DNA of 8,303 nucleotides, taken from Escherichia coli. GTDB lineage: Bacteria > Pseudomonadota > Gammaproteobacteria > Enterobacterales > Enterobacteriaceae. Location: NCBI RefSeq assembly GCF_003334255.1, contig NZ_QOWU01000092.1; one strand, written 5' to 3'. A model generated the notes under the pieces. The model was not told the origin of the DNA and did no database searches. It saw only the letters and a list, made by a program, of their open reading frames with translations. The translations under genes and the position numbers were made by a program. This document shows positions 6,137 through 6,179 of this stretch, in pieces (the stretch's first letter is position 1; each line of letters opens with the position of its first letter).

Positions 6137-6147
6137 ACACCACCAAT

Positions 6148-6176
6148 GGCTGGCCTGAGATATCGCCAGGCCAGCC
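6148..6176. terminator. Long inverted repeat between convergent dcp and ydeJ (probable bidirectional terminator)
   Basis: Perfect 10-bp arms GGCTGGCCTG / CAGGCCAGCC (6148-6157, 6167-6176) around loop AGATATCGC, which itself contains palindromic GATATC. It sits between the dcp stop (6134-6136) and the ydeJ stop (6180-6182). U-tracts are weak on both strands. Confidence 0.5.
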
Positions 6177-6179
6177 TGG

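Follow-up and report, generated by a model that had tools for sequence, protein, structure and literature searches.

Steady-state 3' ends of mRNAs cannot on their own distinguish termination from processing. Bidirectional terminators between convergent genes were reportedly described by Ju et al. in 2019 with the use of SEnd-seq. Dar & Sorek (2018; PMC6061677) have reported that U-poor 3'-terminal stem-loops set the steady-state 3' ends found on Rho-dependent transcripts of Escherichia coli. Wang et al. (bioRxiv 10.1101/2022.10.23.513370) have described bidirectional terminators that "do not resemble intrinsic terminators" and that serve as sites of pausing, and in their model the efficiency grows with the traffic on both genes. 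REP and BIME elements are GC-rich palindromes found at gene ends and can stabilise the upstream mRNA. The hairpin considered here lies in the gap between the convergent genes dcp and ydeJ of E. coli, and it resembles each of these systems in part. Judged by its sequence, it appears to fit the Dar & Sorek class closely in its structural features. Like the members of that class, dcp has a stable GC-rich stem-loop directly upstream of a precise and narrow 3' end, a tail low in uridine, no A-tract, more C than G downstream, and modest expression. Unlike for them, no bicyclomycin-sensitive region is listed at its site by Adams et al. (2021), whose data, perhaps for want of depth, also miss the dcp 3' end. 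With canonical intrinsic terminators, which most dcp orthologues in other genera carry at this place, the locus shares a GC-rich stem and 3' ends 6 and 9 nt past position 6176 (about 7-9 nt being usual), but it is without a U-tract (the criterion being at least about five U in 8 nt) and its 9-nt loop is long. With the bidirectional terminators of Wang et al. it has in common a single symmetric hairpin, a short convergent gap and a non-intrinsic look in both directions; however, only the dcp end of the required two is documented, and ydeJ is apparently too weakly transcribed for collision-driven release. In contrast to REP and BIME elements, the dcp-ydeJ element is single-copy and has no family. 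Overall, it is very probable that the palindrome encodes the 3'-terminal stem-loop of a monocistronic dcp mRNA; a U-poor, leaky terminator or pause combined with trimming back to the hairpin would be the preferred way in which this end is made.

The DNA analysed (the window, 8,303 bp) corresponds, in reverse complement, to E. coli K-12 MG1655 near 1.625 Mb, and coordinates were converted as window position = 1631471 minus MG1655 coordinate. The features are collected in Table 1. The dcp product matches the NCBIfam equivalog NF007624 with 1489 bits. A mechanical open reading frame for dcp (4025-6136) begins at a TTG at 4025 and is over-extended at its 5' end; the annotated ATG is supported because both mapped transcription starts fall within this extension. 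The annotations of YdeJ disagree between sources. RefSeq/PGAP names the protein "2-oxo-tetronate isomerase" (NCBIfam NF002972 equivalog, 329 bits), and the MG1655 record gives "PF02464 family protein"; there is a match to the PncC/CinA amidohydrolase domain as well. The Salmonella YdeJ has been renamed RdsA, a regulator of DNA supercoiling (PMC7387798). A scan of the ydeI-ydeJ spacer (6699-6973) gave three sigma-70-like sites on the minus strand between 6790 and 6949.

Table 1. Positions of the dcp-ydeJ hairpin, the neighbouring genes and the mapped transcript ends in the window
Feature	Window position	Strand	Source or remark
dcp transcription start sites	4067 and 4069	+	MG1655 1627404 and 1627402; SMRT-Cappable-seq, PMC6131387, Supplementary Data 1
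dcp CDS (peptidyl-dipeptidase Dcp, b1538)	4091..6136	+	MG1655 annotation 1625335-1627380; stop codon 6134-6136
CCA, 5' half of 3-bp outer helix, joined across a 2-nt bulge	6143-6145	+	MFE folds
Left arm of 10-bp perfect inverted repeat, GGCTGGCCTG	6148-6157		Sequence
Loop, AGATATCGC, 9 nt, contains GATATC	6158-6166		Sequence
Right arm of inverted repeat, CAGGCCAGCC	6167-6176		Sequence
UGG, 3' half of outer helix and first bases of the U-poor tail UGGUUAUAG	6177-6179	+	MFE folds
ydeJ CDS (b1537, PF02464/CinA-PncC-like)	6180..6698	-	Convergent with dcp; stop codon 6180-6182
dcp mRNA 3' ends	6182-6185	+	MG1655 1625289 and 1625286, minus strand; SMRT-Cappable-seq, TRS
C-over-G-skewed antisense-ydeJ stretch, candidate Rho loading zone	6216-6456	+	C/G 1.5-1.8
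ydfG terminator	3200-3181	-	TRS terminus MG1655 1628293 = window 3178
rspR terminator	2424-2401	-	TRS terminus MG1655 1629076 = window 2395
ydfZ terminator	2045-2025	-	TRS terminus MG1655 1629450 = window 2021

A preliminary description of this DNA had placed a 29-bp near-perfect inverted repeat, with perfect 10-mer arms and GATATC in its loop, in a 43-bp gap between convergent dcp and ydeJ. The gap is indeed 43 bp (6137-6179), and the arms GGCTGGCCTG and CAGGCCAGCC are 100% complementary and enclose the GATATC, so the repeat itself stands; the wording was loose, as the 29 bp consist of the loop and two perfect 10-mers. The stem of 10 bp is perfect and contains eight G-C pairs (-23 kcal/mol, z -3.8 to -4.4). 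No other perfect inverted repeat in the window reaches 10 bp with a loop of 3-12 nt, and dinucleotide-preserving shuffles gave a chance expectation of 0.087 for the whole window, which corresponds to about 4.5e-4 for a gap of 43 bp. Folding of the 43-nt gap as RNA gave -23.1 kcal/mol on the plus strand (z -4.4; none of 200 shuffles did as well) and, for the minus strand, -23.5 kcal/mol (z -3.0). The energy prediction that had been proposed as a check thus comes to about -23 kcal/mol for either strand. The GATATC of K-12 is offset by half a base from the axis of the stem and comes into register only in an allele with an 11-bp stem. Dcm methylation sites (CCAGG, CCTGG) are located at 6166-6170 and 6175-6179, in the right arm and its flank. 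The 11-bp allele gains a third one in the left arm, and three CCWGG sites within 43 bp are dense.

The preliminary description was also right in seeing a GC-rich stem that lacks strong U-tracts. In the first 8 nt past the core stem, the plus-strand tail TGGTTATA has 4/8 T and the minus-strand tail ATTGGTGG has 3/8 T. As RNA, the tail UGGUUAUA contains four U among 8 nt, positions 2-3 being G, and an upstream A-tract is absent before the hairpin. A scan of the window for the hairpin-plus-T terminator consensus omitted the dcp-ydeJ hairpin because it has no T-run. The tail scores at the 82nd-94th percentile of the window, lower than three of the four hairpin-plus-T terminators for which scores were taken there. 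An Rfam 15 search of the whole window, with E up to 10, returned nothing at 6100-6200.

Reports also exist in which the 3' end of dcp was mapped. The SMRT-Cappable-seq study (PMC6131387, Supplementary Data 1) lists dcp as a unit on its own, at NC_000913.3 1625289-1627402 on the reverse strand, with the label "novelTTS", and the end at 1625289 was seen in both M9 and rich medium. In M9, 97 of the 219 reads from the start site stop at the site, with 53 reading through and 5 ending within 50 bp. In rich medium the corresponding numbers are 37 of 69 reads stopping, 1 reading through and 14 within 50 bp (PMC6131387). The median read-through was 99.5 nt in M9 and 136 nt in rich medium. TRS on Term-seq/RNAtag-seq data (PMC10687069, Supplementary Data 2-4) gives "Primary" dcp termini that peak at 1625289 and 1625286, prints the same hairpin at -24.9 kcal/mol, and assigns dcp a 3' UTR of 50 nt. 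Three published datasets therefore concur on a dcp mRNA 3' end 6-9 nt beyond the core stem, or 3-6 nt past the extended stem, overlapping the stop codon of ydeJ. The published maps show that about two thirds of full-length primary dcp transcripts stop 6-9 nt beyond the stem. A mapping of transcript 3' ends to the hairpin had been set as the test of its role, and for dcp the ends lie there.

The window contains its own controls. The hairpin-plus-T terminators of ydfG, rspR and ydfZ have TRS termini 3-6 nt beyond their stems, a stem-to-end geometry that is comparable to that of dcp. These three terminators (-14 to -17.5 kcal/mol) are less stable than the hairpin of dcp with its -23 kcal/mol. Other sources returned nothing for the site. 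The curated Term-seq list of Adams et al. (2021) has no 3' end at the dcp-ydeJ site. In the TERMITe supplements the sole match was an unrelated Streptomyces coordinate. Literature searches for dcp with ydeJ, for the dcp terminator and for ydeJ alone found nothing on the dcp-ydeJ gap; the ydeJ matches concerned the ydeI-ydeJ spacer (RcdA), Shigella intergenic regions at the opposite flank of ydeJ, and the promoter of ydeJ in Salmonella.

A route to the dcp 3' end can be proposed from these maps. Transcription would begin 22-24 nt upstream of the dcp ATG, pass the stop codon and then copy the GC-rich stem of 10 bp (11 bp in most strains). The hairpin and its U-poor tail UGGUUAUAG would act as a leaky, non-canonical terminator or pause. 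Polymerases passing the hairpin would make an untranslated, C-rich RNA antisense to ydeJ and would be halted within about 100-150 nt, most plausibly by Rho. The read-through RNA would be trimmed back to the hairpin by 3'-5' exonucleases, and the hairpin would protect the body of the mRNA. Primary release at the hairpin has close to an even chance of being the dominant step. It is favoured by an end at the canonical spacing of 6-9 nt, by a very stable stem, by a tail that is partly U-rich and by the lack of a listed bicyclomycin-sensitive region at 1624600-1625399 (Adams et al., 2021), and it is weakened by the count of only four U in 8 nt together with the lack of an upstream A-tract. That Rho termination downstream followed by trimming dominates is plausible as well, at a probability only slightly lower. 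In its favour are the close fit to the Dar & Sorek class, the U-poor tail without an A-tract, the C-rich downstream RNA (C/G ratios taken in 80-nt windows from +40 to +280 past the stem; Table 1) and the short read-through, with medians of 100-136 nt. This branch is weakened by the bicyclomycin analysis of Adams et al. (2021; Supplementary file 2), which lists no Rho region at 1624600-1625399 and in which the coverage of dcp may be too low. Release at the hairpin and Rho termination with trimming may also act together.

The hairpin was found in 5417 of 5426 complete E. coli genomes. Copy number was assessed by blastn of the 43-nt gap (word size 11, E up to 10), and the median was one place per genome. 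Some genomes gave a second place, solely where they carry the near-perfect 11-bp palindrome allele, and we take this to be that allele matching itself in reverse. Alleles were counted as exact matches to the whole gap in 5418 records. The K-12 allele, with a 10-bp stem and a 9-nt loop, accounts for 1475 records; an allele with one extra G, which has a perfect 11-bp stem and an 8-nt loop, for 842; an O157-type allele, whose 11-bp stem is mismatched by G-to-T at pair 6, for 1358; and an ST131/B2-type allele, with a G-to-A change in the right arm and ATT in the loop, for 950. About 790 records hold the remaining variants. Each of the four common alleles is present in 16-27% of complete genomes, and K-12 is one G shorter (at 6157-6158) than the other three. 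Two of the four have an internal stem mismatch, so that one-mismatch stems are found in at least 43% of E. coli genomes (1358 + 950 of 5418). The B2-type change gives a C.A apposition on the dcp RNA and U.G on that of ydeJ. The eight Escherichia variants examined all fold at the same position, with energies from -16 to -29 kcal/mol. Conservation of the stem positions does not visibly exceed that of the codons on either side. This and the common mismatch alleles indicate that selection for perfect pairing is weak.

The ydeJ-ydeI region next to the hairpin (6180-7366) is variable in its gene content. About a third of E. coli genomes (1800 of 5418) match only to about 80 bp into ydeJ. In three fetched examples, ST131 uk_P46212, UPEC129 and ATCC 25922, all that remains of ydeJ is its last 27 codons, and ydeI is reduced to a C-terminal stub. 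In other Escherichia clades ydeJ and/or ydeI are missing in differing combinations, and this pattern suggests that the deletions were repeated and independent. B2 strains retain the hairpin despite the loss of ydeJ and its promoter. Since the hairpin is kept where ydeJ has been lost, the element is tied to dcp and not to ydeJ.

The preliminary description had proposed a terminator or stabilising hairpin serving both 3' ends. The dcp half of this proposal is borne out by the three datasets; the ydeJ half is not, as no ydeJ terminus or unit is called and about a third of the genomes lost ydeJ and kept the hairpin. The TRS sheets that list the dcp end contain no terminus on the ydeJ strand (MG1655 plus) between 1622850 and 1628290, and the nearest termini flanking this empty span are those of mgtS/mgtT (about 1622800-1622850) and ydfG (1628290). 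SMRT-Cappable-seq likewise gave no unit containing b1537. As the hairpin is symmetric, a ydeJ transcript would bear an equally stable hairpin 3 nt past its own stop codon, and it is plausible that this could serve ydeJ. A true bidirectional terminator of the kind described by Ju, Wang and Liu would go further. Polymerases would pause at the site and be released by head-on and trailing collisions, with neither a U-tract nor Rho, and overlapping 3' ends would be found on both strands. The convergent genes with their 43-bp gap, the symmetric hairpin of about -23 kcal/mol on both strands with U-poor sequence on both sides, and the absence of a listed bicyclomycin-sensitive region at the site (Adams et al., 2021) are all in keeping with such an element, as is the likeness to elements that look non-intrinsic and act as pause sites (bioRxiv 10.1101/2022.10.23.513370). 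However, neither SMRT-Cappable-seq nor the three TRS sheets with the dcp end show an end for ydeJ, and the hairpin is kept in B2 strains without a ydeJ promoter. The Salmonella ydeJ was reported to be weakly expressed (PMC7387798), and the efficiency in the model depends on traffic on both genes (bioRxiv 10.1101/2022.10.23.513370). Given this weak transcription of ydeJ, collision-driven bidirectional termination is unlikely to matter, and the reading as a whole is improbable. It is just as improbable that the locus is a two-way pause and collision site free of both U-tract and Rho, at which the natural alleles would tune read-through into the opposite gene.

Comparison across species points in the same direction as the dcp maps. 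In one divergent Escherichia, L010, a homologous hairpin, TCTGGTCTGGC-GTGTA-GCCAGGCCAGA, shows a compensatory change of G-C to U-A in its second pair and has gained an inner C-G pair. The stem pairs were read by hand, as the gap placement by MAFFT in the alignment of eight sequences misregisters the K-12 and L010 stems. Escherichia albertii, Escherichia whittamii, Escherichia sp. E1V33 and Salmonella carry unrelated U-poor hairpins at the position after dcp. Among 80 species examined, a hairpin directly 3' of the dcp stop codon is the rule although the sequences are unrelated, and in other enterobacteria these hairpins are mostly canonical terminators. A CCGGG-N-CCCGG hairpin lies within 100 nt of the dcp stop in 44 of the 80 species and is followed by a T-run in 43 of the 44. 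The near-identical terminator core AACCGGGC-N5-GCCCGG with a T-run is common to these 44 enterobacterial species, though their downstream genes differ. Escherichia and Salmonella have replaced this shared core with lineage-specific U-poor hairpins. On the conservation check that had been suggested earlier, the hairpin is almost universal in E. coli, and in other genera unrelated hairpins take its place. That a hairpin is maintained after dcp while its sequence turns over is the pattern of a terminator or 3'-end structure, and not that of a protein recognition site.

The same comparisons bear on a neutral reading, by which the palindrome arose by chance and has no role, and the mapped end is simply where exonucleases happen to stall. 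The frequent stem mismatches, and a stem no more conserved than the neighbouring codons, speak for this reading. The chance expectation for the gap (about 4.5e-4), the recurrence of unrelated hairpins directly after dcp across most of the 80 species and the one compensatory pair change make it very unlikely, however, and an mRNA end at which exonucleases stall is by that very fact stabilised.

A role at the level of DNA was considered as well, either as an operator for a dimeric protein or as a cruciform, with the RNA hairpin being incidental. In favour of such a role, the whole 30-mer of the 11-bp allele is palindromic save for one A/G position and has GATATC on its axis, and as single-stranded DNA it folds at -13 to -15 kcal/mol. 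The Salmonella ydeJ promoter, moreover, is supercoiling-sensitive (PMC7387798). Against this role, B2 strains (ATTTATC) and Escherichia sp. L007 (AATATC) do not keep the central GATATC, the symmetry is broken in a single arm by common alleles, the location is that of two gene ends and no promoter, and the unrelated hairpins of other genera point to structure over recognition sequence. The sole nearby binding site that the literature search turned up is that of RcdA, located by genomic SELEX and footprinting in the divergent ydeI-ydeJ promoter region (PMC3535384). A function in DNA is therefore most improbable, and the protein-binding palindrome suggested in the preliminary description finds no support in a locus with a variable loop, common stem mismatches and no literature site in the gap. 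GATATC was also considered as a meaningful second palindrome and was rejected, since the loop is not conserved.

Least credible of all is that the hairpin is a member or remnant of a REP/BIME or miniature mobile element family inserted between the two genes. Being imperfect palindromes rich in GC and often located between convergent genes, REP elements offer some likeness, and the adjoining ydeJ-ydeI region has been rearranged in many lineages. The deletion breakpoints, however, are about 80 bp from the hairpin, and the blastn search against the 5426 E. coli genomes placed the element once per genome (median, 5417 genomes). On this single-copy result a REP or mobile remnant was rejected, in agreement with the earlier remark that the element does not look like a canonical REP.

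The reading of the palindrome as the 3'-terminal stem-loop of the dcp mRNA places it in a familiar setting. The dcp 3' terminus and its fold are already tabulated in published supplements, and the hairpin is an ordinary, known 3'-end or terminator hairpin. The analysis confirms a dcp 3' UTR of 46-49 nt that spans the entire dcp-ydeJ gap and ends within the ydeJ stop codon. The four common natural alleles could form a ready-made series for studying how much stem stability U-poor hairpins need, which is a convenience and not a discovery. Beyond annotation the significance is slight: the locus adds another stable U-poor hairpin that marks the 3' end of an E. coli mRNA.
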